64,000 nt of DNA, from positions 2,102 to 66,101 of IMG/VR virus record IMGVR_UViG_3300020044_007046. The stretch is one strand, 5' to 3'. Within the stretch, counting starts at the first letter, position 1. Every line of letters begins with the position of its first letter. A program made the translations under genes and the position numbers. Below the pieces are notes generated by a model. The model was not told the DNA's origin. It did no database searches and saw nothing but the letters and a program-made list of their open reading frames with translations. The DNA is from a virus. Its lineage: Duplodnaviria > Caudoviricetes. Shown in pieces: positions 9,452 to 30,221 of this stretch.

Positions 9452-9649
9452 TTAAAACTCATCGTTTACTTTGGGCATAAATAGTCGGGGAATTGTTTTC
9501 TTTTTCTTTAACTGTTTTAACAGTTCTGGATTAATTTCACTGCGTAGTGAAGCAATCCCTCGCTGACGACAGTGTTGTTCGTATACTGGTAATAACACAT
9601 CTAAGATCAATCTTTCTAGCTGTGCAGTATAATTTGGTTGTGTTGACAT
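9452..9649 (-). CDS. Hypothetical protein
   Basis: 65 aa ORF; first gene downstream of the leftward promoter. Confidence 0.6.
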   Translation of the reverse strand: MSTQPNYTAQLERLILDVLLPVYEQHCRQRGIASLRSEINPELLKQLKKKKTIPRLFMPKVNDEF

Positions 9650-9669
9650 TAAAATTCTCCGAGTGCCTT

Positions 9670-9770
9670 TATTATATCATTCTGGCAAATATTTTTCAAG
9701 AGTATTTGAGCTTTAGGTTAGCCCAAACCTTAAAAACACACTTGCCTAACGTTTGGTCTTGTGATATAAT
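9670..9770. promoter_or_regulatory. Divergent sigma70-type promoter pair at the strand switch
   Basis: Minus strand TTGAAA-17-TATAAT; plus strand TTGCCT-17-TATAAT. Confidence 0.7.
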
Positions 9771-9798
9771 TGAAAGTTCATTCACACATCAAACAAGC

Positions 9799-10116
9799 AT
9801 GAGCTACGATATATTAATTAATAACTTGGTTAATGGGGAAACTGTTACAGTAACTAGACCAGACGGTACTACTTATACAGAACCCAGACCACCAAATCGC
9901 ACAGCATTAGCAGCGGCTAAAGCTATTCAGAATCTGCAAGGTCAACTAAACTTTGGTACAGCTGCTATTGCTCAGCTTACACAAGAACGCAATGAACTTT
10001 GGGAACTTTGTGATAAAGTTCAGCAAGAAAATAAAAGGCTGCAAGATGAAATTAACATTAAAACAAGCACTAATACCAGTGCTAATGGGAGTACTAGTAG
10101 CTCTACCCCTGGATAG
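9799..10116 (+). CDS. Coiled-coil hypothetical protein
   Basis: Start taken at MSYDIL, downstream of the promoter. Confidence 0.6.
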   Translation: MSYDILINNLVNGETVTVTRPDGTTYTEPRPPNRTALAAAKAIQNLQGQLNFGTAAIAQLTQERNELWELCDKVQQENKRLQDEINIKTSTNTSANGSTSSSTPG

Positions 10117-10525
10117 GGCTGAAAGAGCAATTAATACTGCATATCAAACAGTAAAAGCCACACAACACGAAATGTTGTGTTTGGCTAAAAATATTTACTT
10201 TGAAGCCCGTGGCGAGCCTATGCGGGGTAAAATAGCAGTTGCACAAGTTACGCTAAATCGTGTAACACATCGCACCGAATTTCATTCAAACATTTGTGGA
10301 GTTGTATATGCAAAACATCAATTTTCGTGGACTGTGGAACGGCATCGTGAACCACGTGGGCCAGCTTGGCTTGAAGCTCAAGCACTTGCTAAAGCGGTCG
10401 TCTTAGGCACGGCACATTTACCAAATTTCAACGCACTATACTTTCATAATTTGACAGTAAATCCTAGTTGGAATCGAACAAAAGAATTAGTTGCCAGAAT
10501 AGGTAATCATATCTTTTATGCTTAA
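10046..10525 (+). CDS. SleB-family cell wall hydrolase (Hydrolase_2)
   Basis: N-terminal hydrophobic segment, then CLAKNIYFEARGE...AVAQVTLNRV...QFSW...IGNHIFY. Confidence 0.9.
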   Translation: MKLTLKQALIPVLMGVLVALPLDRAERAINTAYQTVKATQHEMLCLAKNIYFEARGEPMRGKIAVAQVTLNRVTHRTEFHSNICGVVYAKHQFSWTVERHREPRGPAWLEAQALAKAVVLGTAHLPNFNALYFHNLTVNPSWNRTKELVARIGNHIFYA

Positions 10526-10608
10526 CCAAAAGGGCAGACAGGCTAATTATTTTTGGCTTGCTGCCCTTTTTGTTTTCTGTTATAATAATGGCTTAACAGA
10601 GAAATTTT

Positions 10609-11367
10609 ATGAAAATCAGACTGCTCTCAGACCTACACACAGAATTCCGTTTACCATATAAAACTCACGCCTTGAGTGAATATCATGGTGAAGATGTGCT
10701 TGTTTTAGCAGGTGACATTGCCTCAGGTGCTACAAACACACAGGATGTTATCAAATTCTTTTTAGATCAAGGTTTTCCTAAAATCGTTTATGTACCTGGT
10801 AACCACGAATATTATGGTACTACTATCAATGACTTTGACGATAAGATGTTAGACTTTTGTGAGCGTACACGCAACGCACATTTTTTACGTCCTGGCACAG
10901 TTACCATTGATGGTGTGTTATTTACTGGCGGCACACTATGGACTAACTTTGCAGACAATCCTATAGTACAAAGCGTTTGCGGTCGTATGATAAATGACTT
11001 TCGTCAAATCAAAAACTTTAAAACCAGCTCTGCTTACGATCTATACTACAAACATCTAGACTATATTCAACAAAGTTACAACTATCGTGCCGATAAGAAA
11101 GTAGTTGTAGTCACACACTTTTTACCAGCCCGTGAGTGCATTGCACCACAGTGGCGGGGTAGTGATTTACTCAACGACTACTTTGCTAACGATTTAGGGT
11201 CAATGATCACTGATATGGAAAACACCACTTGGTTGTTTGGACATACACATGACGCTATGGACTTCCAACTTGGCAATACTCGTTTAGTCTGTAACCCACA
11301 CGGATATTATGGTTCTAGCGAGCCAGGCACTAACGGATTTGATCCACACAAAACTATTATAGTATGA
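10609..11367 (+). CDS. Calcineurin-like metallophosphoesterase
   Basis: SDLH, AGDI, GNHEYY, VTHFLP, GHTH motifs. Confidence 0.9.
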   Translation: MKIRLLSDLHTEFRLPYKTHALSEYHGEDVLVLAGDIASGATNTQDVIKFFLDQGFPKIVYVPGNHEYYGTTINDFDDKMLDFCERTRNAHFLRPGTVTIDGVLFTGGTLWTNFADNPIVQSVCGRMINDFRQIKNFKTSSAYDLYYKHLDYIQQSYNYRADKKVVVVTHFLPARECIAPQWRGSDLLNDYFANDLGSMITDMENTTWLFGHTHDAMDFQLGNTRLVCNPHGYYGSSEPGTNGFDPHKTIIV

Positions 11368-11528
11368 AAAATTTAACTGACTATTTTAATTTACTGTTAC
11401 TGGCTATGTTAGGCGATCACGAGTTGGTTAAACGTTGGTGGGATACACCAAACTTAGCTTTTGATAACAAGTGTCCCAAAGACGTAGACGAAAACAAAGT
11501 TAAATCTTACCTTGAAGGATGCCTTTGA
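11364..11528 (+). CDS. Small protein resembling the Xre/MbcA/ParS antitoxin toxin-binding domain (54 aa)
   Basis: Manual translation ...VKRWWDTPNLAFDNKCPKDV..., similar to the W-x-x-x-P-N-x-A-L-x-x-x-x-P motif. Confidence 0.5.
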   Translation: MKNLTDYFNLLLLAMLGDHELVKRWWDTPNLAFDNKCPKDVDENKVKSYLEGCL

Positions 11529-11737
11529 AAAAACTAGAATATTACGAAATACGCGAAAACTGTAAGCTCATAGACTATAGCTTACTGCTTGCTGGCAAAG
11601 GCAAACTTTGGGTCGAAGTCTACAGAGACAACCAATACGAATACCGAGCACTGTTTCCAGACGTTGAGAGTTGGTCAGCAGTGCCTATGACAATTTTAAC
11701 ACACAAACTACATGAAACACAAACTGATTACCGCTAA
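11519..11737 (+). CDS. Hypothetical protein
   Basis: 72 aa ORF in the operon. Confidence 0.55.
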   Translation: MPLKKLEYYEIRENCKLIDYSLLLAGKGKLWVEVYRDNQYEYRALFPDVESWSAVPMTILTHKLHETQTDYR

Positions 11738-12635
11738 AGTTATTGCAGACAGCGTATGCCCACAAGGTGTACGCATGACTACTATGGAGATTGAGTATCC
11801 GCGTTTTATCTTAGCAGAACTCAACACACATCGTATGTTGTCAAAGAATAGTGCTAGTTCACGGGCTATTCCTGTTAAGGCTATGCACGACTTTATCAAA
11901 GAAAACCCTGCTACTCCTGTACACTGGGGCAAAAACCAACCAGGCATGAAAGCCAGTGAAGAACTGGTTGGTGTTGATTTAAAAGAAGCACATCGACTAT
12001 GGAATCGTGCTAAAGAAGATGCACTACATTGGTCATGGGCATTATCTGAACATCTAGGTTTGCACAAACAAATTTCTAACCGCGTTACAGAGCCTTGGAT
12101 GACAATGAAAACTGTTATCAGTGGCACTGAGTGGACTAACTTTTTTCACTTACGCAATCATGCAGACGCACAGCCTGAGATTAAGGCACTAGCAGAAGCA
12201 ATGACTGTGGCTTATACAACACATTTACCTGTTGAACTAAAACCAGGTGAATGGCATTTACCTTATATTACTATCGGAACATATGTACCTACTGGTGAAC
12301 TACAGTATTTTGACGAAAACTTTAATCGTCTATCTCTTGAAGACGCTAAGATCATTAGTGCTAGCTGCTGCGCTCAAGTTAGCTATCGTAAAAACGACCC
12401 TGGATTTACAAAAGCATTTAAAATCTGGGAACAATTAATTGAAAACGATCCTGTACACGCCAGTCCAATTGAGCATCAAGCCACTCCTATGGATATTGAT
12501 AGTATGTCTAGGTTTGAACCTGAGACCTGGCAATTGGGAGTTACTCATGTCAGTGCTAATAGCGATCTATGGTCAGGCAACTTGCGTGGCTGGATTCAGC
12601 ATCGCAAACTTATTCAAAATGAGGCGGTATGGTAA
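11712..12635 (+). CDS. thyX: FAD-dependent thymidylate synthase
   Basis: YPRFILAELNTHRMLSKNSASSRAIP and the HASPIEHQA phage Thy1 signature. Confidence 0.9.
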   Translation: MKHKLITAKVIADSVCPQGVRMTTMEIEYPRFILAELNTHRMLSKNSASSRAIPVKAMHDFIKENPATPVHWGKNQPGMKASEELVGVDLKEAHRLWNRAKEDALHWSWALSEHLGLHKQISNRVTEPWMTMKTVISGTEWTNFFHLRNHADAQPEIKALAEAMTVAYTTHLPVELKPGEWHLPYITIGTYVPTGELQYFDENFNRLSLEDAKIISASCCAQVSYRKNDPGFTKAFKIWEQLIENDPVHASPIEHQATPMDIDSMSRFEPETWQLGVTHVSANSDLWSGNLRGWIQHRKLIQNEAVW

Positions 12636-12802
12636 ATAATCAACCACTTAAACGCTGGGTTGTTGAGCTAATCGAGGAAGGTGAAGATTTAATACTTCCG
12701 CTTAACGATGAAATAATAGAAGCCACTGGCTGGAAACCTGGTGACGAACTGCTTTGGGAACAAAAAGCAGGCAATGCTTGGACATTAAGGAAAAAACCAT
12801 GA
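12629..12802 (+). CDS. AbrB/MazE/SpoVT-type DNA-binding protein (57 aa)
   Basis: Manual translation ...EDLILPLNDEIIEATGWKPGDELLWEQ... Confidence 0.65.
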   Translation: MVNNQPLKRWVVELIEEGEDLILPLNDEIIEATGWKPGDELLWEQKAGNAWTLRKKP

Positions 12803-13170
12803 TAGTTATACTCTACACAGAAGACTTTGAACCTATTATTCCCATTGACTTACCGCTTTGGTTACTAGAGCGATTAGAGGTTGAGGGTCAGGTACGTGTA
12901 GCTGTTAACAGACCAACACAGTTTGTTGATTCAAAGATTCCTGTAGGTAACTTAGAACCCAACATACCCACTGTGCGTATTCGCTGTGAGCGATTGCGGT
13001 GGCGGGATGGCTCACTAAAAACACTTTTAGTTACCGAAGACGAAGAACTTGCACTGAGCCTAAACCCAGAGTGGTTGCCTGGTCAGCGCGCCCCTATTCA
13101 AATGTATATGGGAGCTATGCGTAAGATGCATGAAGAACTAATCAAACAAATCAGAAAAAATCAGAGTTGA
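12799..13170 (+). CDS. Hypothetical protein
   Basis: Start taken at MIVILY (AAGGA RBS, ATGA overlap). Confidence 0.65.
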   Translation: MIVILYTEDFEPIIPIDLPLWLLERLEVEGQVRVAVNRPTQFVDSKIPVGNLEPNIPTVRIRCERLRWRDGSLKTLLVTEDEELALSLNPEWLPGQRAPIQMYMGAMRKMHEELIKQIRKNQS

Positions 13171-16314: not shown

Positions 16315-17112
16315 ATGCTATTTAAAAAACAAGAATTACATTCAATCGACTTTGAACCCACTTATGGTAAATCGGTGGAATCTTTTGAAGTTTGGGCTGA
16401 ATCACACGAACTGTCCCACCTTTCCAGTTGGTTGCTGCCCCAGCTTGTTGCCTATTTTGGTAACTGGACTTTAGTTTATACAGACTCTGGTTCAGTTGAT
16501 TGTTTAGCGACTATTTACCACAACTGCCCTGACCCTCAGTCTAGGGCATTTTACACTTTGAGCAGGATTAAAAGATCAGTCCTAGTCTCAAACCAAACCA
16601 AGAGTCCTGATTACGCAACACTTACCCCGCTTATCTTAATGGGGCAAAAGCGTATGAGAGGAGTCAGTTACGAATCTTGGAGAACAGCTAAAGATCTTAG
16701 CTGGATGCTTGAGCCTAGGCTTTATGAAGCCCTAATGCTGGATCCTATGGTAGTAGAAAATTGCTGCAGTTTAGGGTCAGAAAGACTTATTGAAATTAGA
16801 GACCAAGGTCTTTTAGCTCGAACTGGAGTAAAAGCAGGCCAAACAAAGCCTGCTAAATCTACTTGGAGCTTGACTGGAATTCAAGACACAGAGTTAGGTA
16901 GTTTGCCAAAATTAACACAAACTATCCTAACTCAATGTTGGTTGGCACACCCTGAATCTAGAACATCTTATATGATCCTAGATCTACAAGACTGGGACTC
17001 AATGCCACAACCTTTAGTTACCAATGACATTTTTAAAGCACCAGTGCAAAAACCAGAACCAACCAAGAAACTAACAAAAGAGAAGGCAGAATTGCTGCCA
17101 TGGGACCTATGA
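16315..17112 (+). CDS. D2: T5 D2-like protein
   Basis: TLTPLILMGQKRMRGVSYESW...RTGVKAGQ...QCWLAHPESRTSYMILDLQDWD..PQPL...PW matches the T5 D2 pattern as recalled. Confidence 0.75.
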   Translation: MLFKKQELHSIDFEPTYGKSVESFEVWAESHELSHLSSWLLPQLVAYFGNWTLVYTDSGSVDCLATIYHNCPDPQSRAFYTLSRIKRSVLVSNQTKSPDYATLTPLILMGQKRMRGVSYESWRTAKDLSWMLEPRLYEALMLDPMVVENCCSLGSERLIEIRDQGLLARTGVKAGQTKPAKSTWSLTGIQDTELGSLPKLTQTILTQCWLAHPESRTSYMILDLQDWDSMPQPLVTNDIFKAPVQKPEPTKKLTKEKAELLPWDL

Positions 17113-17462
17113 AATACACCAAAGAAATCACAGACAAATTGATTGCAGACTATAAGGCAGGAGTGCCTGTTGCGGTAATAGCTCAAGGGCTAGATGTACC
17201 AGAACGTAGTGTGATTGCTAAATTAAGCTCTCTGGGCGTCTATACCAAGAAAAGCTATGTCAACAAGCGTGGTGAGGTACCAGTTAAAAAATCGGAGCAC
17301 ATCGAGCGTATTGCTGAGCTATTAGACGTGGATGAAGAATTGCTGGAATCGCTGGAGAAGGTAAATAAAACTGTACTTAAGCTAATTGAACACAAATTGG
17401 CCCAGGTTGACCCTAAACTGCCACAACTTGGCACAAAATCGGAGTTATTTGCACTTAATTGA
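17109..17462 (+). CDS. D3: T5 D3/A2-family DNA-binding protein
   Basis: RSVIAKLS...VY...VKK..H...LESLEK motif; directly follows D2 as in T5. Confidence 0.7.
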   Translation: MKYTKEITDKLIADYKAGVPVAVIAQGLDVPERSVIAKLSSLGVYTKKSYVNKRGEVPVKKSEHIERIAELLDVDEELLESLEKVNKTVLKLIEHKLAQVDPKLPQLGTKSELFALN

Positions 17463-17493
17463 CCCTAAGCTGAGCAAATCAGCCTAATTAAAA

Positions 17494-17530
17494 GAAAAGC
17501 CCACTTAAATTGCTTTAAGTGGGCTTTTTT
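17494..17530 (+). terminator. Intrinsic terminator after D3
   Basis: AAAGCCCACTTAAA-TTGC-TTTAAGTGGGCTTTTTT. Confidence 0.8.
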
Positions 17531-17647
17531 GCGTCTGTTACCGTGGTGGTCGTAATTGCACTGGTTTGTTGCGGTTTAGGGTCAGAACAGTCAAGAATTA
17601 CCACTTGACAAGATTTAGCACTATGTGGTATAATGGCGCCGAGCACA

Positions 17648-17687
17648 CAAAACAAAACCCCGTCACCATTACGTGTACGGGGTTTTG
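17648..17687 (-). terminator. Intrinsic terminator (possibly bidirectional)
   Basis: 11-bp stem CAAAACCCCGT/ACGGGGTTTTG with a T-rich tail on the minus strand. Confidence 0.75.
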
Positions 17688-18241
17688 AAAGCATTTACTA
17701 CTGCAGTAGCGTTGTCTTTTTTGCTCTAGCAGGACTATTAAGGGAATCACCACCGCCTGACCCTAAACTGTAGCCTGTCGCTACATACATCCGCTGGTGA
17801 TGAGTCCATTGCGATGTTGTTTAGGTGAGTATGCACGTTTCAGTCCTGTCAACCTCTACTTAACGCGAAGCGTCTCGATTGGGTATGCAAGGATATCCGT
17901 GACTAACTGGTTTAGATTTATGTGGTTCCGCACAACTGTTTTTTCAATTATTTTAACGACCCGCCACAGTTTAGGGTCGATGTGCGTCTTTAAGTATAAG
18001 CTGAAGCGCCCTTCGAATATACTCGCCAGAGAGATTCCATACTCTCATTACAGTCAATAAAGTCTGCTCTTGGTTAGAAGATAGCTGTATTTAATTTAGG
18101 AGTTCTTTCTCCTAGAGGTTCCTATGTTATGTTACCTCAAAACCAGTTAGCAAGTACGTATGCAGACGACGTGGGATATAGGTGGGACACGCTACCTAGA
18201 ACTACTCTTTACCTAACACCAGCAAGTGGTACACGCTAGGG

Positions 18242-18353
18242 ATTTCGTCCTGACCCTAAACTGCTGACATTTAGAAGTATTGAAGTCTTCAGGAATGTCT
18301 GCGATTGTAAAGGGTTTCGCCTGTATTTCAGAGGCTCATCAGAGGATTAAAAT
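18242..18353 (-). ncRNA. Type I hammerhead ribozyme
   Basis: Minus strand UCCU-CUGAUGA-GCCU(CUGAAAUAC)AGGC-GAA-ACCCU...AGGGU-C/AGGA: full core, stems I, II and III, GUC cleavage triplet at 18254-18252. Confidence 0.8.
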
Positions 18354-18763
18354 GGGCGATAACTTAAGTCTTTCAGTCATCATTAAAAACTTATCCAGTT
18401 CCATGGAGAGCTGGTCTTGGTTTACCCAATCTGTAGGGGGCTGTGGCTCGGGTAATTATTCCCCACAATTAAGACGCATAGCAGATATATCCCGCTTCCG
18501 CTGTCACCCTTATTCATCAATTTATATAATAATTATACAGTATTTAACACACTATATCAAGTAAGAAATTAGACACTCGTTGCAATCAGACTACTCACAA
18601 AACAGACTAATATTAATTTGCGTGGTTGAGGTGAGATTCATTTGCAGACGGACACCAACTTTCGCTGGTATTCATTAAGCCCTTCCCGACTGTCTAAGAT
18701 ATTATTATACATGAATTGGGGTTGAGGATCAAGAGTAAATTTTCTGACCCTCAACCGTTACAA

Positions 18764-19072
18764 TCAACGCAAGTTTGCGAGGATTGCTTCCAAGACTTCG
18801 TGATTGGCTTTTTCCAAGCTATCAAAAGTTTCTGGAGCTACACCAACTCGGTTGGCGATGCGATCAACCAATTCGGCTTTCTTAACACGGGCTACGCCAG
18901 TGCTCTTAGATTTGGCATGGTAAACTCCTTCTCTGGAGAGTTTTGCCACGATTGACCGAGTGGTCTTGCCAAACATTTCGGCCAAGCTTTCCACGCTTAC
19001 GCCGTCGTTGTATTTGGCTACGAGCTGAGCAGTTTGCTCAGGTGTGTAATTTACGGTTTTGTCAGTCATCAT
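18764..19072 (-). CDS. A2: A2-family DNA-binding protein, paralogue 1
   Basis: VNYTPEQTAQLV...GKTTRSIVAKLSREGVY...VKKAELV...DSLEKAN; own promoter TTGTAG-17-TATAAT. Confidence 0.7.
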   Translation of the reverse strand: MMTDKTVNYTPEQTAQLVAKYNDGVSVESLAEMFGKTTRSIVAKLSREGVYHAKSKSTGVARVKKAELVDRIANRVGVAPETFDSLEKANHEVLEAILANLR

Positions 19073-19129
19073 ATGTCCTTTCAAATGGTTTCTGCGCTGT
19101 TAAAGATATAATTATACGGGATTTGAACA

Positions 19130-19252
19130 TCAACTACAAGTGAGAATTTCTTCGGGTATGAGCATGTCTTCAAGAATTTTCGACACCTCGTCGTCCACAA
19201 AATCCTCAAACCATTGTTGCTGATCCTGCCTGAAAAAATCATTGTCTGTCAT
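19130..19252 (-). CDS. Small acidic protein (40 aa)
   Basis: Manual translation MTDNDFFRQDQQQWFEDFVDDEVSKILEDMLIPEEILTCS; AAGGA RBS and TTGAAC-17-TATAAT promoter. Confidence 0.6.
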   Translation of the reverse strand: MTDNDFFRQDQQQWFEDFVDDEVSKILEDMLIPEEILTCS

Positions 19253-19444
19253 GTTGGTTTCCTTCTCATCAATACAATAATTATACAAAATTTCGCAAAA
19301 CAGTTCAAATTTAAATTTTTGCTGGTTTCACGCCAAGAAATATTTACTTGACACAACAAGCTTTTCCACTATATAATGGGCGCACAAGCAGCACAAAGTT
19401 TTCCACTTGACAAGGATTACCACTGGCGCAGCATGCTGACTGCG

Positions 19445-19530
19445 CAGTCACAAAATGAACGCTCCAGTCACAATTTGAACCGAACAGTCGCAAAATGAAC
19501 GCTCCAGTCACAATTTGAACCGAACAGTTC
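19445..19530. repeat. Tandem repeat, 4 x 20 bp (2 x 40 bp higher-order unit)
   Basis: CAGTCACAAAATGAACGCTC / CAGTCACAATTTGAACCGAA / CAGTCGCAAAATGAACGCTC / CAGTCACAATTTGAACCGAA / CAGTTC. Confidence 0.95.
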
Positions 19531-19721
19531 AACTTAATTAATAATTACGGGCGTGGCGCAAGAATCGTGCCAGGTTGCGTAAAAACAACATAGGGGTAAA
19601 CACCTATTGACACGCTTCAAAATTATATGCTATAATTTTGGCGCCAGCGAAGTGAGTGCTTACTTCGCTGGGAGATAATAAAAAGCCGATTATAAATAAT
19701 CGGCTTATAATCATTATATGA

Positions 19722-20042
19722 TTATATTGGCTTTGAATTAGCCAATGCTTCGAAAATCGCTTTTAAAGCATTTTTATTTGCTTTAGTTAATGATTCAATA
19801 TCATTTTCGGGTAATCGCAAAATCGCACCAATAGCATCTGCGTGAGTATCTTTTTTAACTGGAGATTCTCCAGTTTTAGATTTATATTCTTTTTTAATAT
19901 AAACCTTTTCACGAGATAATTTAGCGACAATACTCCGAACAGTTTTACCGAGATTATCTGCGATAATCTCAACTGATTTACCCGCTTGATAATCAGCGAT
20001 AATCTGAGCAGTTTGCTCAGGGGTATAATTAATGTTTTTCAT
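19722..20042 (-). CDS. A2: A2-family DNA-binding protein, paralogue 2
   Basis: INYTPEQTAQII...GKTVRSIVAKLSREKVY...PVKKDTH...ESLTKAN; terminator hairpin at 19683-19706. Confidence 0.7.
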   Translation of the reverse strand: MKNINYTPEQTAQIIADYQAGKSVEIIADNLGKTVRSIVAKLSREKVYIKKEYKSKTGESPVKKDTHADAIGAILRLPENDIESLTKANKNALKAIFEALANSKPI

Positions 20043-20054
20043 TTATTTTCTCCT

Positions 20055-20288
20055 TTAAAATGAATTATATAAACCAAGAATATTAGCTAAAAAGAAAGTA
20101 CCATTAAGAACCATTAATGATTTATCTTTTCGATAATATCCAACTATTAACCAAGATAATGAACCGATAATAAAAAAGCAATATCCCAAAAAGAATAATT
20201 GACTGGCAACAATAAATGCACCGATAATGCTAGATATAGTCCCAATCCAAGAAACTATATTAAGTAATTGAATAATATTAAAAATCAT
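20055..20288 (-). CDS. Small three-helix membrane protein (PnuC/PQ-loop-like half-unit)
   Basis: SWIGTISSIIGAFIVA...GYCFFIIGSLSW...FFLANILGLY. Confidence 0.6.
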   Translation of the reverse strand: MIFNIIQLLNIVSWIGTISSIIGAFIVASQLFFLGYCFFIIGSLSWLIVGYYRKDKSLMVLNGTFFLANILGLYNSF

Positions 20289-20662
20289 CGTTTTATTTCC
20301 ATTGAGTGATATTTATCGGGAGATAATCCATAGTTAATCATTATCTCTTGCCATTTTTTACCATGACCACATTTTGCTTCTGATAATCCAAACAAATTAT
20401 AATCGGCTTGGTGGATTAACTCATGCGGTAATATAACTTTAGTCATATTATTTGCATAATCGGGAGAATATACAAAGAATTTATAACCTAATTCGACAAT
20501 ATTAGATTCTTGGTGGCATAATCCCGCATTACGCCACAAATAACCATTTAATTCTATAATCGGTGGATTATAGCGAGTTAATCGGGGATATAATTCGCAA
20601 AGATTATCCCAAATAATCAGGGTCTGATTATTTAAAATATTAATTAGCTTTTTTCTGTCCAT
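20285..20662 (-). CDS. SprT-like zinc metalloprotease
   Basis: NAGLC, ILPHELIHQ (HExxH), HGKKWQEIM. Confidence 0.8.
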   Translation of the reverse strand: MDRKKLINILNNQTLIIWDNLCELYPRLTRYNPPIIELNGYLWRNAGLCHQESNIVELGYKFFVYSPDYANNMTKVILPHELIHQADYNLFGLSEAKCGHGKKWQEIMINYGLSPDKYHSMEIKR

Positions 20663-20840
20663 GTCCTACATTATACACAAGTCACAAACCATTGCAAATT
20701 ATTTTTGAATACACAAGTACACATTCGCCAAAATACAACATAGGGGTTTACCCCTATTGACACGGGCTCCAAAATTATGATATAATTTTGGCGCAAAATT
20801 GAATACCTGAGTATTCAATTTTTATGGGAAACAAAAGTAT

Positions 20841-21089
20841 TCATTTTGATTTTATTTTATAATAAATAATAACCGATAAAAAGATTACATTTGCAGTATA
20901 ATTAAATAATAATGGTAAATCCATTTTAGGGAATACATATATTATTGTGAATATCTCGCCAATAAACCACATTGAAATAAATCCCCAAGTTAATCCCTCA
21001 GAGGATTTTGTTTTATATGATTCTATTGCTTGCGGTAATCCGCAAAATGCCAATAATATAGAACCAATCCAACCTATATTTTCTATCAT
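20841..21089 (-). CDS. PQ-loop/SemiSWEET-like membrane protein
   Basis: IGWIGSILLAFCGLPQAIESYKTKSSEGLT...; three hydrophobic helices. Confidence 0.75.
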   Translation of the reverse strand: MIENIGWIGSILLAFCGLPQAIESYKTKSSEGLTWGFISMWFIGEIFTIIYVFPKMDLPLLFNYTANVIFLSVIIYYKIKSK

Positions 21090-21224
21090 AATATTAAATC
21101 CCTTGTTAAAAAGTTATTATACCGCATTTCATAATGATCGTCAATATCATATCGTTTTTGGGTATAAATAAAAAACAATAATAAGATAATCCATAAAATT
21201 CTATTATTAGTTAATCTCATTTTA

Positions 21225-21920
21225 TTATGCCTTAAAATTATCTCGCACCTGAAATTTATTCCAGTCATAAGGGACTATATTATCTTGCCAATTACGTTTT
21301 TTGAGAATATGAGTTAAAATAGGTAATTCAAAATCTCGGGCATCTTCTAAAGCAGTATGCGGTTCAATAATAAAATTATTATTAATATAACCACAAACCA
21401 TTTCTGCATTAGTTTTAAATGTCATATTACCATGTTTAGTAACATTATTAAAACCATGATTATCTAAACAGAATTGTTTATATTTTTTGGTTTTGCAAAT
21501 ATTGCCAATACTGGCTTGCCATAAACAAAACTTCTGATTAAAACCTGATAAATCAATACCAGTATTTGAGCATTTATTTAAATCAAAAGCGAGATTATAT
21601 GCAGTTAATGAGGGATTATATTTGCCGATTGCCTGATTAATCCATTTATTAATTGCATTAACTGAGGCAATCATTCTCACGCCATTTTCTAACATGGCAA
21701 TATAAGCCATTTTGCGCTTAGTTAATCCCTCATAACCCCAAATATCATTTGCTTTTTTATCATGGAATAATTCCATTGTATTATAATGCCCATTAACTAA
21801 AACAGCGCATTGATTATAAATGCGACCTTCACGATCACAAATAACCATTGCAAAATCAGCGACAGTATCGCCCATTGTGGTTTCTGTGTCTAGAATACAA
21901 AAGTATTGCTTTTTTGCCAT
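21225..21920 (-). CDS. DEDDh 3'-5' exonuclease
   Basis: ILDTETT (ExoI), AYNLAFD (ExoII), HTALED (ExoIII); start taken at MAKKQY. Confidence 0.85.
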   Translation of the reverse strand: MAKKQYFCILDTETTMGDTVADFAMVICDREGRIYNQCAVLVNGHYNTMELFHDKKANDIWGYEGLTKRKMAYIAMLENGVRMIASVNAINKWINQAIGKYNPSLTAYNLAFDLNKCSNTGIDLSGFNQKFCLWQASIGNICKTKKYKQFCLDNHGFNNVTKHGNMTFKTNAEMVCGYINNNFIIEPHTALEDARDFELPILTHILKKRNWQDNIVPYDWNKFQVRDNFKA

Positions 21921-22123
21921 GTATGCTTTCAGTTGGTAGACCTGCATCTTACCACAAAATTTAAAAAATCTGTGTTGTATTTTAATCACACACAAAAAAT
22001 AAGTTATTAAAAAATGCTTGACACGGGCTCAATTATACTAGTATAATTGGCGCAAACTGTGGTTTTAAAACCACAGTTATTTTGAAAACCTGAGTATTCA
22101 AAAATTTTTGAAAACCTGAGTAT

Positions 22124-22282
22124 TCAAAAATAAGGTTGAGCCGATTCGCTTTTGTCCATAATATCCGCCCAGCCATGCCAGCCCATTTGCCAAGCCTCCG
22201 ATTGTGCCTTGTCTAATGGTTCACCTAGTGAATGGGCATCAAAACCCAATTCATAATCTCGATTATTAAAATAGTTAATCAT
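22124..22282 (-). CDS. Small hypothetical protein (52 aa)
   Basis: GGAGA RBS; manual translation MINYFNNRDYELGFDAHSLGEPLDKAQSEAWQMGW... Confidence 0.55.
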   Translation of the reverse strand: MINYFNNRDYELGFDAHSLGEPLDKAQSEAWQMGWHGWADIMDKSESAQPYF

Positions 22283-22408
22283 TAGTTTATTCTCCGAGTT
22301 AATATATCTAAAATCTGTCTTAATGGTATTTGCATTATGTCTACAATATCATAAAGATTATAGCCTTCGGCTAAAAAATCTTTAATTAATGTTTCGGCAT
22401 AATCAATA

Positions 22409-22885
22409 TTAATGCCCTTGTTTACTTGGTACATATACACCCCTTATATTGAAACGATCACAAACTGCTTTTAAATAAGTTACATTATCCTCATAAAATG
22501 TAAATTCAGCATCTTTAAATGTAATTAAATTAAAGAATTTAGCCAAACCATTAATTTTTAATGTAGCACCTGAGATATTAGAATTCTCAGGTCTTGAAAT
22601 AATATAATCAGGTTCACCCAGTATCTGATTAATAAATGTATAATCAGGGGTATTAAGAACACGGGCAGTAGCAATAATGACATAACACGATTCATCTTTT
22701 AAATCCTTTTTATATTGTTCTGCTAATGGCAAAAGAGAATCATTCAAGGCTAAATCTTGATTTTCTCTCCAATAATTTAAATCTATTCTCTCGCCATTTT
22801 CATCTACAATAGTGCGATATCTATGCAAAGAACAAACGATTGTTCCATCCATATCATAAATTGAAACCTTTTTAATTTTAGCCAT
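22409..22885 (-). CDS. dmp: HAD-family deoxynucleoside-5'-monophosphatase (T5 dmp-like)
   Basis: IYDMDGTIVCSLHR...IDLNYWRE...DSLLPL...IIATARV...FYEDN matches the T5 Dmp pattern as recalled. Confidence 0.75.
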   Translation of the reverse strand: MAKIKKVSIYDMDGTIVCSLHRYRTIVDENGERIDLNYWRENQDLALNDSLLPLAEQYKKDLKDESCYVIIATARVLNTPDYTFINQILGEPDYIISRPENSNISGATLKINGLAKFFNLITFKDAEFTFYEDNVTYLKAVCDRFNIRGVYVPSKQGH

Positions 22886-22888
22886 TTT

Positions 22889-23020
22889 TTAATCCTTGAA
22901 ATATTGTCTGATTGCCGATTTGTATTCTGCCATTGTAGCAAATTTTAAACCATGTCGCAAGCAAAATTTGCGAAATTCTGCAAATTGTTTTGTAGTGTAC
23001 TGATATTCTTTTTTCATCAT
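22889..23020 (-). CDS. Small basic protein (43 aa)
   Basis: Start taken at MMKKEY, downstream of a TATAAT element. Confidence 0.55.
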   Translation of the reverse strand: MMKKEYQYTTKQFAEFRKFCLRHGLKFATMAEYKSAIRQYFKD

Positions 23021-23175
23021 AGCCCCAATTATACACGCAAAACCGCCCAAAAACCATGTGTGCAAAAATACAACATAGGTGTTTACACCTATTGACACGG
23101 GCTCCAAAATTATGATATAATTTTGGCGCAAAATTGAATACCTGAGTATTCAATTTTTTCTGCAAACCTGAGTAT

Positions 23176-23538
23176 TCAAAATGAAACAATATCTATATTG
23201 TAATAAGCCTTAAAATAATTTCGCCATTGGGTAAAGCCTGATTTTGTGTCGTGCGTTATATCCTTGTCTTGTTCCATTTGCCATGCGTGAACATACTCAT
23301 GCGCTAATGTTGAAAATAAATCAAGGTCTGATTTTATTTCGCTAGTGGCAAGCCTGATTTTGTGATTGTATTTCTTAGGGCTAATCTTTTCGCCCTCATA
23401 CATTCCCATGCAAGAGTCACCATCAAAACGCAAAACCTTAGTCTTTGCAAAGTTAATCCGTGATTTTAGCTTAAACTCATTTTGTAGTATAAGCTGGAAC
23501 AATCTTGTTTTATCTGATCTAATCATTTTGAAATCCAA
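23176..23538 (-). CDS. Second HExxH zinc metallopeptidase (SprT-like)
   Basis: LFSTLAHEYVHAWQ...H. Confidence 0.7.
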   Translation of the reverse strand: MDFKMIRSDKTRLFQLILQNEFKLKSRINFAKTKVLRFDGDSCMGMYEGEKISPKKYNHKIRLATSEIKSDLDLFSTLAHEYVHAWQMEQDKDITHDTKSGFTQWRNYFKAYYNIDIVSF

Positions 23539-23821
23539 AGCAATAGCGCAACCTTAACGCATATAAACGCAACGACACCCAAACACACATTAAAGAATTC
23601 TATATCTGTCATTAGTCAACCTGTATATCTGTTATTACATTATTGTTTACAATAAAGTACATTTCAACCAAACCCATGCTAACCCAAACGCAACGATTAC
23701 CCTCACGGATAGCATAAGGTTTATTAGGGTATTTTTTAGCTAAGTAGCTTTCAACAATTTCAAAATTTTTCATAGGTCTATTATATCAGATAAAACAAGA
23801 TAGGGGCAAAGCCCCTATTGA

Positions 23822-24142
23822 TTACAAGGTCTTTTCAGCCTTGATAAAATCGGCAATTTTAGCAAGTGCTACCTTGTTTGCCTTAGTAAGTGATTCTGTA
23901 TCGGCTTCAGTCAAGCCCAACATTTCACCGATAAAATCAGCGTGAACATCTTTTTTAATCGGTGTTTCGCCTGATTTTGTTTTGTATGCCTTAGCAACAT
24001 AAACCTTTTCGCGTGATAGCTTCGCAACAACTGAACGCACAGTTTTACCTAATGCCTCAGCAATAGCGTCAACTGTCATACCGCCTTCGTAGTCGGCAAC
24101 CATGCGAGCAGTTTGCTCGGGGGTGTAGTTTACTGTTTTCAT
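23822..24142 (-). CDS. A2: A2-family DNA-binding protein, paralogue 3
   Basis: VNYTPEQTARMV...GKTVRSVVAKLSREKVY...PIKKDVH...ESLTKAN. Confidence 0.7.
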   Translation of the reverse strand: MKTVNYTPEQTARMVADYEGGMTVDAIAEALGKTVRSVVAKLSREKVYVAKAYKTKSGETPIKKDVHADFIGEMLGLTEADTESLTKANKVALAKIADFIKAEKTL

Positions 24143-24466
24143 TTTTTCTCCTTAAAAATATATTATATCACAATGGCTTCATTAATGCAAGCCATATCCA
24201 CAATGGTGAAAAGGTTATTGCAACAAACAAGATAGCTTGCAAAATTTCTGTTATCAATTTCATGTTGGTTTCCCTTGTCATCATGTTTTCAATTATAGAT
24301 CAATGAAAATTTTTGTCAATACATTTGTTGAAATACAACATAGGTAGATTCCCTAATTGACCACGGGGGCGGTTATCAGACTATTTTTTACCCCACGCCT
24401 ATGGGCCCACCGACACGGCCTACATATGGGAAATTTCCAAAAACACTTGGGTGCCAAAATCCACAC

Positions 24467-24495
24467 TTGCCCTAAACCTGCTAAACTGGTATAAT
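24467..24495 (+). promoter_or_regulatory. Promoter for the packaging/late genes
   Basis: TTGCCC-17-TATAAT; the spacer contains CCTAAAC-like copies of the 13-bp motif. Confidence 0.65.
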
Positions 24496-24515
24496 CAACA
24501 CAAAAGGATACCTCT

Positions 24516-24989
24516 ATGACAACTCACCTGCCTGCAGAAACCGTACGAATCAGCCCCGAAGCACTGGAAGTAGCAAATGCCTATCTCCAGCTTAACGACG
24601 CCCGTGCAGTCGCCCAAGAACTAGACTTAGACCCTGAAGTGGTAACAAATCTCCTAGCTCGCCGTGAGGTCAAAACTTATATTGACTCAGTATTTTTCGA
24701 TAGTGGATACAACAACCGTTTTCTTATGCGACGTGCCATGGATGCACTAATCAAACAAAAGTTTCAGGAACTTGAGGAATCACAAACTGGATCAACTAAA
24801 GATATTGCCGAGCTACTACAAATGTCACACAAAATGTCAATGGATTTACTAGATCGCGAGATTGCCTTAGAAAAAGCACGTATGACAACTGCACCGCAAA
24901 AGCAAGTTAACGTTCAGATCAATGAAGGTCTAGACGGCAGCAAATACTCACAACTTGTGCAGCGCTTAATCACAGGAGAAGGCGTATGA
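24516..24989 (+). CDS. terS: Terminase small subunit (T5-like)
   Basis: ISPEALEVANAYL...VKTYIDSVFFDSGYNNR...KFQELEE...SHKMSM...QVNVQIN; position upstream of terL. Confidence 0.8.
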   Translation: MTTHLPAETVRISPEALEVANAYLQLNDARAVAQELDLDPEVVTNLLARREVKTYIDSVFFDSGYNNRFLMRRAMDALIKQKFQELEESQTGSTKDIAELLQMSHKMSMDLLDREIALEKARMTTAPQKQVNVQINEGLDGSKYSQLVQRLITGEGV

Positions 24990-25270
24990 AAAAGCTATTA
25001 CTTATCTTAGCACTACTACCTACCTTCGCATTTGCACAACACTACCATCACCACAATCATCGCCCACACTGGCGTTATCAAGGGGGTAATTGGCACTGGA
25101 TGGTTCCTGCAATTATTGGTGGTGTGGTAGTTTATGAGGCCACTAAACAGCCAGCCCCTCAACCGCCAATAGTTATCCAACAAACCCAAACTACCGAAAC
25201 CTGTGGCCCATGGACTGAGGTTCAAACACCTGATGGTAAAACATATCGCGAAAGAACTTGTCAGAAATAA
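24986..25270 (+). CDS. Small exported His/Pro-rich protein
   Basis: Signal peptide MKKLLLILALLPTFAFA, His-rich segment, C-terminal Cys pair. Confidence 0.6.
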   Translation: MKKLLLILALLPTFAFAQHYHHHNHRPHWRYQGGNWHWMVPAIIGGVVVYEATKQPAPQPPIVIQQTQTTETCGPWTEVQTPDGKTYRERTCQK

Positions 25271-28256: not shown

Positions 28257-30221
28257 ATGGTAGATAAAAATAAAGTGCTGTATGTAAACAGTTCTTTTAC
28301 TAAGAGTGAACCTACTACCACAGACGAAAGCGTTGAAATGTTAACCATTAAAGGTTACGCTTCAACTACTGACGTTGATAGACAGGGCGATATTGTTCCT
28401 GTAAGCGTTTGGGAAAAAGGTATTCAAAATTACTTGAAAAATCCAGTAATTTTAGCATACCATAATCACAGCGCTCCTATCGGTAGAATGACAGAGCACA
28501 AGGTTGATGAAAAAGGATTGCTTGTAAAAGCACGAATTTCTTCTGCAGCCGGTGACGTTTATAAACTAGTAAAAGACGGTGTACTCACAGCTTTTAGTAT
28601 CGGATTTCGCATTGTAGATGCGGAGTACAATTCAGCTGCAGAGCTGTTTGTGGTAAAGGAGTTGGAGCTGCACGAAATTTCAGTAGTGTCAGTACCTGCA
28701 AATCAAAACACATTATTTAGTCTCTCTAAGTCGTTTGAAAACGACGAAGAATTTAAATCTTTCAAAATGCAGTTTGCACCCAAAAGCGAATCAGCTAAAG
28801 GGCTAGAATCCTCTACGGAAGCGAACAGCGATGTTACAAAGGAATGGAAAATGGATCCAAAACAATTAGAACAAATGTTAGCTGATGCAGCTAGCAAAGC
28901 GGCTGAGCAAACTGCTAAAGCCATCGGAGAAAAGCAAGCTAAAGATGCTGCTGAGAAATTAGCTGCTGAAAAAGCTACTGCTGATATCGACGCACGCGTT
29001 AAAGCCGCTGTTGCAGCTATCTCCACTGTTGACACTGGTGCTGAAAAGCTCTTGGCTGAAGTCGAGAAGCGTTTGGCCTCTGCTGAAGAAACAAACAAAT
29101 CCGTGATCGCTGGTTTGGAGTCTGCTCTTAAAGAGAAGGCTGCTGAAATCGAAGCAATCACAAAGTCAAAAATGTCTTTTGCAGACACAAAAGCTGCTGG
29201 TGACGGTTTGACATATGCTGAAAAAGAGAAGGCAATCTTGTTGTCAAAGATGTCTGGTAAGTCTGTTGAAAGCACACGTACCGGCCGCGCTTTGATCGAG
29301 AAAGCTTCTGGCTATACTGCTGGTGACGTATCTACAACTGGTGCACACCTGCCAAGCGGTATCTGGGAAACTGAAGTTTCTATGAACATGGAAGCTGAGA
29401 TTCGTCGTCGTTTAGTCGTTTCTCCTATCTTCCGTAACATCGCTATGCAAACCAACGTGATGACTATGCCTGTTAACCCAGAAGCTGGTTTAGCACAGTG
29501 GGTTCAGAACGCTGGTTTCGGTACTAGCGCTTCTGCTGGTAACACAGCTACTCATCAGCTCAAAGAAATCACTTTGAACGCATATAAAGTTGCTACTAAC
29601 GAGTACACTGCATATGAAGAAGAAGAAGATGCTTTGTTGGCTTTGATGCCCGTGATTCGTGATGGTATGATCCGTCGTGTTGCACGCGCTGTTGATAAGG
29701 CCTTCTTGTTAGGTGCTGGCGCTGGTGCTGACCCCGTCAAAGGTTTGGCTAACTGGGCTACTAACACCACTGCCACTGGCAACACCGTTGCTGCCGGCAT
29801 GACAGTTGCTAAGTTGCGCACATTGCGTCAAGGTTTGGGTGTTTGGGGTCTCGATCCCGCTGAAGTTATCTTCATCGTTAACACCGACGCCTACTACCAG
29901 TTGTTAGAAGATCCTATCTTCCAAACTATGGACAAAGTTGGTGCACAAGCTACCGTGTTGACAGGTCAAATCGGTCAAGTTGGTGGAAGCCCCGTGTTGG
30001 TGTCTGCTGAGTATGCAGCCCCCGGTACAGGTGTTACAGGTGCTATCGCTGTTAACCCAGGAAACTTCTTGGTTGGTAACCAGCGTGGTCTCCGCATCGA
30101 CACACAAGAGTTAGTTGAGACACAGCGTCGCGTTATGGTGGCTAGCCTCCGTACCGGCATGACTCAAGTTACTACTGCACAAGGTACAGGCGTAACAGCT
30201 CACAAGTACACAGCATCCTAA
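28257..30221 (+). CDS. Prohead protease fused in frame to the major capsid protein (HK97 fold)
   Basis: N-terminal GYAST.DVDRQGD...HNH..PIG...FSIGF...EISVVSVPANQ, then a coiled-coil scaffold (delta) region and the capsid domain; no intervening stop. Confidence 0.9.
   Translation: MVDKNKVLYVNSSFTKSEPTTTDESVEMLTIKGYASTTDVDRQGDIVPVSVWEKGIQNYLKNPVILAYHNHSAPIGRMTEHKVDEKGLLVKARISSAAGDVYKLVKDGVLTAFSIGFRIVDAEYNSAAELFVVKELELHEISVVSVPANQNTLFSLSKSFENDEEFKSFKMQFAPKSESAKGLESSTEANSDVTKEWKMDPKQLEQMLADAASKAAEQTAKAIGEKQAKDAAEKLAAEKATADIDARVKAAVAAISTVDTGAEKLLAEVEKRLASAEETNKSVIAGLESALKEKAAEIEAITKSKMSFADTKAAGDGLTYAEKEKAILLSKMSGKSVESTRTGRALIEKASGYTAGDVSTTGAHLPSGIWETEVSMNMEAEIRRRLVVSPIFRNIAMQTNVMTMPVNPEAGLAQWVQNAGFGTSASAGNTATHQLKEITLNAYKVATNEYTAYEEEEDALLALMPVIRDGMIRRVARAVDKAFLLGAGAGADPVKGLANWATNTTATGNTVAAGMTVAKLRTLRQGLGVWGLDPAEVIFIVNTDAYYQLLEDPIFQTMDKVGAQATVLTGQIGQVGGSPVLVSAEYAAPGTGVTGAIAVNPGNFLVGNQRGLRIDTQELVETQRRVMVASLRTGMTQVTTAQGTGVTAHKYTAS

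Follow-up and report, generated by a model that had tools for sequence, protein, structure and literature searches.

A conserved array of counter-oriented promoter-palindrome cassettes upstream of the terminase genes in an uncultured T5-related siphovirus

We analyzed a stretch of 64,000 nucleotides (positions 2,102 to 66,101 of IMG/VR virus record IMGVR_UViG_3300020044_007046; hereafter the window, numbered from its first letter), which derives from an uncultured T5-related siphovirus. It contains an array of repeated cassettes, here called units, which combine a consensus sigma-70 promoter with the word GGCGC and, in the fuller copies, with palindromes, and which lie among small genes of the opposite strand. 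From 24.5 kb to its end, the plus strand carries a small terminase candidate (24516), the large terminase gene TerL (25258), a protease-capsid fusion, a T5 p143-like tail completion protein, the tape measure, and tail genes; TerL shared approximately 50% identity with its counterparts in Vibrio T5-like phages. Left of the array lie tRNA genes, nucleotide-metabolism genes, and other early-type genes. The interval from 17.46 to 18.76 kb showed no credible open reading frame (ORF), and that from 18.76 to 24.3 kb held only small minus-strand ORFs. IMG/VR contig G001 was approximately 95% identical across most of the window. Searches with the region and one unit (megablast and blastn) and with a helix-turn-helix (HTH) paralogue (tblastn) returned no relevant homologues from cultured phages.

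Perfect TTGACA-N16-19-TATAAT promoters occurred ten times in the window, compared with 0.13 expected, which rules out a chance origin. Six of them, all on the plus strand (17605, 19348, 19607, 20757, 22018, and 23092), had a spacer of exactly 18 nt with 12 of 12 positions matched, and were followed by GGCGC at distances of 0, 1, 3, 3, 1, and 3 nt from the −10, respectively; the remaining four had spacers of 16–17 nt and no GGCGC. The original prediction of six plus-strand TTGACA-N18-TATAAT units with GGCGC was thus confirmed, the six lying between 17605 and 23129. Its claim that these promoters oppose the surrounding genes was also borne out, as the ORFs from 18764 to 24284 were all on the minus strand, several with PHROG hits, and no plus-strand ORF followed any of the six units in the window. 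The features of the array are listed in Table 1.

Table 1. Features of the array and its neighbourhood (P1 to P3, palindromes; z, score of the single-strand fold of the unit against shuffled sequences)
Feature	Position	Strand	Description
Unit A	17605..17639	+	−35, 18-nt spacer with DnaA-box-like word, TGn, −10, GGCGC immediately; P2 absent
G+C-rich hairpin	17654..17686	.	A-run before and T-run after; directly downstream of unit A
Leftward small-gene blocks separated by units	18764..24284	-	ORF list, PHROG hits
106-aa HTH paralogues (phrog_323)	18764-19084, 19722-20042, 23822-24142	-	PHROG
Unit A'	19348..19383	+	Perfect promoter, 18-nt spacer, GGCGC 1 nt past −10; no palindromes (z = −0.2)
Promoter-less degenerate A-type copy	19407..19429	+	Ends GGCGCAG; best window match to the T5 injection-stop nick context
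Unit B1	19590..19671	+	P1 19590-19607, promoter 19607-19636, GGCGC 19640-19644, P3 19644-19671; z = −6.2
Unit B2	20740..20822	+	P1 20740-20757, promoter 20757-20786, GGCGC 20790-20794, P3 20795-20822; z = −8.1
Unit B3	22018..22127	+	Promoter 22018-22047, 20-nt P2, GGCGC 22049-22053, P3 22055-22078; z = −5.3
348-bp segment, two 52-aa ORFs	22057..22404	-	Absent from G001; left edge is the B3 GGCGC/P3 junction
Polynucleotide-kinase-like gene	22409-22885	-	PHROG
Unit B4	23075..23179	+	P1 23075-23092, promoter 23092-23121, GGCGC 23125-23129, P3 23130-23157; z = −7.2
Decayed unit, outer array edge	24340..24400	+	P1-like and −35-like parts left; −10, P2, and GGCGC lost

The fuller units had been described as stacks of three palindromes: P1 at the −35, P2 across the −10, and P3 beyond GGCGC. 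Single-strand folds compared with shuffled sequences supported this for the four full units (B1 to B4), which formed three adjacent hairpins with z-scores of −5.3 to −8.1. The A-type units (17605 and 19348) have neither P2 nor P3. The fold of the unit at 17605 showed the terminator hairpin only (z = −2.9). P1 was perfect at 19590, 20740, and 23075 and degenerate at 24340, as predicted; it is absent from B3, in which P3 is followed by two direct copies of a 12-nt downstream motif (22090 and 22116). In B4, the copy of this motif at 23168-23179 contains the stop codon of the gene at 23176-23538. The P3 of B1 is a LacI-type-looking palindrome. Unit A has an orthologue in G001. The hairpin at 17654..17686 forms a bidirectional terminator closing the 3' end of the ORF-free leftward region, and its stem in G001 is rebuilt from different letters. 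Between the promoter-less A-type copy and B1, a unit of approximately 20 nt is repeated in four tandem copies (19440-19530).

A pattern scan of IMG/VR revealed the same design in at least 119 stretches, many with 3–7 copies. Among the matches listed, all units were on one strand in 60 of 60 loci with two or more units, and flanking ORFs were mostly opposed to them (opposite versus same strand, 123:28 downstream and 121:18 upstream). In five near-complete relatives (94–104 kb), the units were confined to one 5–8-kb array, which in all five lay 1.5–4.3 kb upstream of TerL and on the TerL strand, down to 56% TerL identity. No units were found in T5 or Vibrio phage X1, and the literature search found no description of such elements in T5-like phages. 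The cassette design is therefore real, conserved, and undescribed in the searched literature.

The loci of this family were ascertained with the exact N18 plus GGCGC pattern, which inflates counts of that combination, including the presence of GGCGC in 258 of 273 promoters with an 18-nt spacer; ordinary gene promoters at the same loci had a 17-nt spacer without GGCGC in 69 of 81 cases. Conservation also extended to positions outside the search pattern. A TGn motif preceded the −10 across units (T 0.79, G 0.69), and phased A-tracts lay at about −40/−44 and −51/−55, the proximal and distal UP positions, approximately 11 nt apart. With a profile search, about 190 additional copies came to light, which lack the exact pattern and have TTGACG or TTGACC as the −35. 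The −10 variants TAAAAT and TACAAT changed at the third position only, and the left arm of P2 carried a compensating change each time. Because promoter-type conservation is seen at positions that the search pattern left free, the units are, judging from their sequence, genuine and very strong host sigma-70 promoters, with initiation itself predicted. The GC-rich stretch past the −10 and the 18-nt spacer bear a resemblance, and only that, to stringently controlled promoters, and the likeness to rRNA P1 promoters drawn in the original prediction is likewise one of resemblance. Two other origins of the conserved pattern were considered and rejected. A second, minus-strand promoter using the mirrored −10 in P2 has no −35-like word at the mirror position. 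For a minus-strand peptide read through the cassette (ORFs 20699-20818 and 22878-23189), the −10-to-GGCGC distance varies by 0–3 nt and not in multiples of three, and conservation tracks promoter positions rather than codons.

The three palindromes differed in character. P1 was scored as a minus-strand terminator at 20757-20740 and 23092-23075 in a terminator scan, and its features are those of an intrinsic terminator on the minus strand only; P1 is thus the predicted intrinsic terminator of the leftward genes, which places the plus-strand promoter within their 3' untranslated region. P2 spans the spacer and the −10, with a loop of 3 or 4 nt and a median palindrome score of 10, compared with 3 when the spacer was shuffled. 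The T-run after the −10 and the A-run in the spacer covaried (31/38, 20/30, and 84/99 on the diagonal). As both arm length and centre of P2 vary, intrastrand pairing or a cruciform fits better than a rigid protein dimer. In the long-P2 variants of some relatives, the −10 is central in P2 and GGCGC lies 14 nt past the −10, so GGCGC tracks P2. The predicted GGCGC was thus present after all six promoters, but a fixed discriminator position for it was not upheld, and it instead closes the foot of the P2 stem.

P3 starts 2–6 nt beyond GGCGC and was represented by 130 distinct hairpins, with arms mostly of 10–13 nt, loops mostly of 3–4 nt or 8 nt, and a mean free energy of −15 kcal/mol on either strand. 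Its median palindrome score was 10, compared with 4 for shuffled sequences, and 97% of its pairing was Watson-Crick across the 130 sequences. P2 and P3 are accordingly assigned, on sequence grounds, to palindromes under selection, in agreement with the original proposal that structure rather than sequence is maintained: P2 shows compensatory indels and substitutions, and P3 keeps its pairing across all these sequences. Mismatches in P3 were G:T versus A:C in a ratio of 5:9, compared with 78:27 in 369 terminator-like hairpins from the same loci (p = 6e-7), and a U-rich tail followed P3 in 24 of 130 cases (18%) in the plus sense and 7 of 130 (5%) in the minus sense. Without a G:U bias and with few U-rich tails, P3 is no ordinary RNA hairpin, whichever strand is read, and resembles a double-stranded DNA site (operator or cruciform) or an element constrained on both strands. 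A role for P3 as a terminator, either of the leftward genes or of a short plus-strand RNA, was not supported across the family, in which tails are scarce and the G:U bias is absent.

These properties bear on two explanations in which the plus-strand RNA itself is the product. The units could produce short RNAs of 30–50 nt with a 5' hairpin, acting as decoys or as antisense regulators like lambda oop and P22 sar. In the window, four of the five hairpins after units have T-rich tails (17683, 20819, 22079, and 23154), and the predicted start lies 2–6 nt ahead of P3. The family-wide scarcity of U-rich tails and the mismatch ratio given above speak against it, the diversity of P3 sequences is too great for a shared RNA target, and no Rfam match supports it (for 17000-25000, neither a hammerhead nor any other family was found at E ≤ 1, apart from one weak chance-level hit). 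We regard this explanation as very unlikely, and the hairpin decoy RNAs of approximately 35–50 nt suggested by the original prediction are disfavoured by the same scarcity of tails and absence of terminator-type bias.

The units could also be rightward promoters that feed the terminase and structural operon, with resistance to termination conferred by the 5' hairpin, as in put RNA, or by a phage factor. In the window and all five near-complete relatives, the array lies immediately upstream of TerL and in the same orientation. The terminator scan predicted none on the plus strand from the last unit to the small terminase gene, P3 is in most cases not a terminator, and a hairpin 2–6 nt from the predicted 5' end of the RNA would make it more stable. 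Yet the late operon has its own promoter (24467-24495), an antisense leader of up to 7 kb would be wasteful, and constitutive consensus promoters would give no late timing. Moreover, the sequence of P3 is not conserved as that of an antiterminator RNA would be, and RNA-type covariation is absent. This makes a late-operon role quite improbable.

Operator-like sites accompanied the units in relatives. Of 304 units, 33 had a canonical parS (at most one mismatch) in the 110 nt downstream, compared with a background of 10 matches in 1.03 Mb, an enrichment of about hundredfold, and sometimes two occurred in a row (e.g., loci L033, L079, and L056); a symmetric lac-operator core was found at 7 units. 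Neither parS nor this core was present in the window. Consensus sites for LexA, CRP, FNR, ArgR, sigma-54, DnaA, and IHF showed no enrichment after units. The window itself carries five copies of the 12-nt word just past B units, all on the plus strand and in three cases containing the stop codon of the convergent gene; since the word recurs on one strand, sequence matters there in addition to symmetry. The A-type spacers (17611-17628 and 19354-19371) and the promoter-less copy (19400-19424) contain words one mismatch from a DnaA box. An ORF-free stretch of approximately 0.85 kb (17690-18530), with a minus-strand promoter (18560-18532) on one side and the hairpin at 17654-17686 on the other, contains copies of a 12-nt word in both orientations.

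Such sites would be expected if the units were landing pads for host proteins (polymerase, ParB, LacI/Fur-type proteins, or DnaA) on the first DNA to enter the cell, serving as a ratchet or anchor, as decoys, or as gating sensors. Consistent with this are parS and the lac-operator core in relatives, the absence of an RNA-type G:U bias in P3, the one-strand 12-nt word, the DnaA-like words, and the synteny of the region with T5 first-step-transfer DNA described below. Against it, the window has no parS, and its P3s matched none of the tested host operator consensuses, which were taken from model bacteria and may not be those of the host; the operator assignments in relatives are borrowed in the same way and may likewise not fit. 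A handful of sites is also too few to titrate abundant proteins, and a ratchet needs neither units on one strand nor a palindrome over the −10. We consider landing pads an unlikely explanation of the array as a whole.

Comparison with cultured relatives indicated where the array stands in the genome. With TerL turned to the plus strand, Vibrio phage X1 (Demerecviridae) shows early genes, a non-coding stretch, a leftward block of small genes, A2-like, A1, and dmp genes, and the terminase. Flipped T5 has the same order, with its terminal repeat running from the injection-stop region to dmp. In T5, A2, A1, and dmp are required for second-step DNA transfer and shut-off. The gene order of the window is that of X1 and T5 minus the A2-A1-dmp block: A2-like, A1, and dmp have no counterpart in the clade (window 24300-24520 compared with 9569-13091 of X1, locus L127). 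This shared order identifies the array as the probable counterpart of the T5 first-step-transfer/terminal-repeat region and hence as probable first-injected DNA, so that synteny with T5 and X1 lends support to the original placement of the units there. The IMG/VR 'direct terminal repeat' flags of relatives did not place the array at contig ends. It is a long-standing question how genes on the first 8% of injected DNA are controlled and then silenced in T5-like phages, and equally what the repeats, palindromes, and nicks of this region are for; the present clade carries a sharply defined and deeply conserved DNA module in place of A1/A2/dmp.

The first-step-transfer region of T5 also contains single-chain interruptions and injection-stop repeats (T5 record NC_005859; Davison, bioRxiv 10.1101/866236; PMC3517423), and the nick consensus is R/GCGCRGG (PMC3517423). 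GGCGC could be a T5-type strand-specific nick site presented by P2 and P3, with the nicks or the cruciforms serving packaging, terminal-repeat duplication, or injection control, in which case the promoter would open the site or be secondary. The parallels are several. T5 nicks come after R/GCGC, and all units carry this word on the late-gene sense strand, which is the nicked strand in T5. The T5 injection-stop nick (the 7.9% nick) is followed directly by a perfect palindrome, and the direct repeats that precede it share a short core word with the A-type spacers of some relatives. On the map, the array and the T5 nick region both fall in the inner part of the terminal-repeat/first-step-transfer region. 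The nearly pure Watson-Crick pairing of P3 on both strands is as expected for DNA structure, and GGCGC follows the end of P2 rather than the −10.

On the other side, the full consensus R/GCGCRGG was found in none of the six window units (R-GCGC in all, RGG in none) in a comparison by sequence alone, only the promoter-less copy at 19425 reaching RGCGCRG, and GCGC, as a word, is short. Neither a promoter nor a P2 is present at the nick sites of T5, and the strict keeping of UP-like tracts, −35, TGn, and −10 in the units would be unexplained. Nicking at GGCGC is thus not a likely explanation; if true, it would link the unexplained nicks of T5 to transcription signals.

Comparison among relatives pointed to exchange at the units. 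Ends of high-identity alignments fell within −70 to +110 of a unit in 32% of cases, compared with 15.6 ± 2.1% at random, with a peak just past GGCGC. Between the window and G001, the units with the same flanks (22018 and G001 15963) differ in their cores, and the 22018-type core is found elsewhere in G001. Across 39 loci, the order of inter-unit blocks was mostly conserved, and replacements affected single positions with the flanking blocks kept. The breakpoint excess, the swapped cores, and an indel at a GGCGC/P3 junction (Table 1) agree with the suggestion that the units are recombination points, and the module, being repeated, would provide a preferred crossover point for promoter cores and gene blocks. 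Breakpoints at units together with a mostly kept block order suggest that exchange is real but local. The wholesale shuffling of gene cassettes originally envisaged did not hold up, as block order is largely conserved and replacements are local; the identical gene order in relatives that was to count against shuffling was itself only partly seen, since local replacements occur.

The leftward genes appear to be expressed separately from the units. Several have their own promoters with 16–17-nt spacers and a start codon 6–7 nt past the −10; the minus-strand starts at 20662, 23020, 23773, and 24284 lie at this distance past a perfect minus-strand TATAAT, so leaderless mRNAs are predicted. The same spacing was the commonest upstream of units in relatives (57 cases). 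A leftward TATAAT lay 40–100 nt from the −35 of the unit in 109 of 279 units, against approximately 7% expected, and the stop codon of the convergent ORF lay a median of 54 nt past GGCGC. With the stop past GGCGC and the leftward TATAAT behind, a unit converges with the block on its right and stands back-to-back with the promoter from which the block on its left is read. A fourth small HTH paralogue is encoded on the plus strand at 17100-17462 (phrog_323/1725 set), and the four HTH paralogues are candidates to bind P1, P3, or the 12-nt motif.

Repeated cassettes of comparable composition are known from T4-type phages as promoter-early stem-loops (PeSLs; Arbiol et al. 2010, PMC2839356; Comeau et al. 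2014, PMC4122927). Like the units, PeSLs are intergenic cassettes of approximately 100 bp repeated in a plastic region of small orphan genes, with a strong sigma-70-type promoter, an AT-rich upstream part, and a stem-loop between −35 and −10 or over the −10 (PMC2839356), and they are linked to insertions, deletions, and replacements between close relatives. However, the PeSL promoter faces the next gene and ends in its Shine-Dalgarno sequence and start codon, whereas the units face against their neighbours, which have separate promoters, and lead to no ORF. Driving the next gene is a defining feature of PeSLs, and the units lack it. In addition, only the units show the GGCGC clamp, a second, exchangeable palindrome, and the fixed 18-nt spacer, and they belong to a T5-like siphovirus, where they form a single 5–8-kb array by the terminase genes.

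A second point of comparison is the convergent antisense promoters of temperate phages, lambda pO with oop RNA and P22 Psar with sar RNA. As in the units, a strong promoter lies at the 3' end of a gene, or beyond it, and is directed back into that gene. Each of those is a single site yielding a defined, terminator-ended RNA of approximately 70 nt with a specific target, whereas the units form an array of 4–7 with varied palindromes mostly without terminator tails.

Tentatively, and short of calling it probable, we favour reading the units as PeSL-like boundary cassettes with an antisense promoter between leftward pre-early blocks. Leftward transcription would pass the end of a block, P3, GGCGC, and P2 and would halt at the P1 hairpin with its U-rich tail, and the promoter of the next leftward block would fire approximately 40–100 bp beyond P1. 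The embedded plus-strand promoter, its −10 locked in P2, P2 closed by GGCGC, and P3 forming an exchangeable near-perfect palindrome, would fire back over P3 into the block that has just ended. Relative to the pre-early genes this transcription would be antisense, and relative to the downstream terminase/structural operon it would be sense. Convergent transcription may insulate the pre-early blocks or shut them off in time; the clade has no A1, the shut-off gene of T5. An occupant or structure at P3 could gate antisense transcription.

Several points weigh against this reading. Each functional step beyond promoter identity is inferred. P1 already ends leftward transcription, which makes an additional insulator seem redundant, and most P3 are not terminators, so the end of the plus-strand RNA is not explained. 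The scarcity of G:U pairs in P3, and the parS sites that adjoin it in relatives, suggest roles at the DNA level, for which an antisense model has no need. The exact N18 and GGCGC used in ascertaining the loci inflate their counts. The breakpoint excess could partly reflect faster intergenic divergence in loci that are related and not independent, and block order was mostly conserved in the 39 loci.

A more elaborate variant treats the cassettes as logic inverters on first-injected DNA, in which P3 is an exchangeable, operator-like palindrome (parS, LacI-type, Fur-like, and others) placed 2–6 nt past the GGCGC of a maximally strong antisense promoter, and its occupancy by a host or phage DNA-binding protein decides whether convergent transcription silences the adjacent pre-early block. 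We hold this to be distinctly unlikely. If true, the phage would read the state of the host block by block in the first minutes of infection, and the repeated core would let recombination swap in new pairs of sensor and gene. Either convergent transcription or a protein-gated switch, if true, would represent a new regulatory design for phage early regions and a compact natural part for synthetic biology.

Two features of the rightward genes were also recorded. A prohead protease and a major capsid domain are fused in a single 654-aa ORF (28257-30221), and a tail-fibre-like protein of 1895 aa (52938-58625) combines 19 collagen-repeat stretches with a T7 tail-fibre N-terminal domain.

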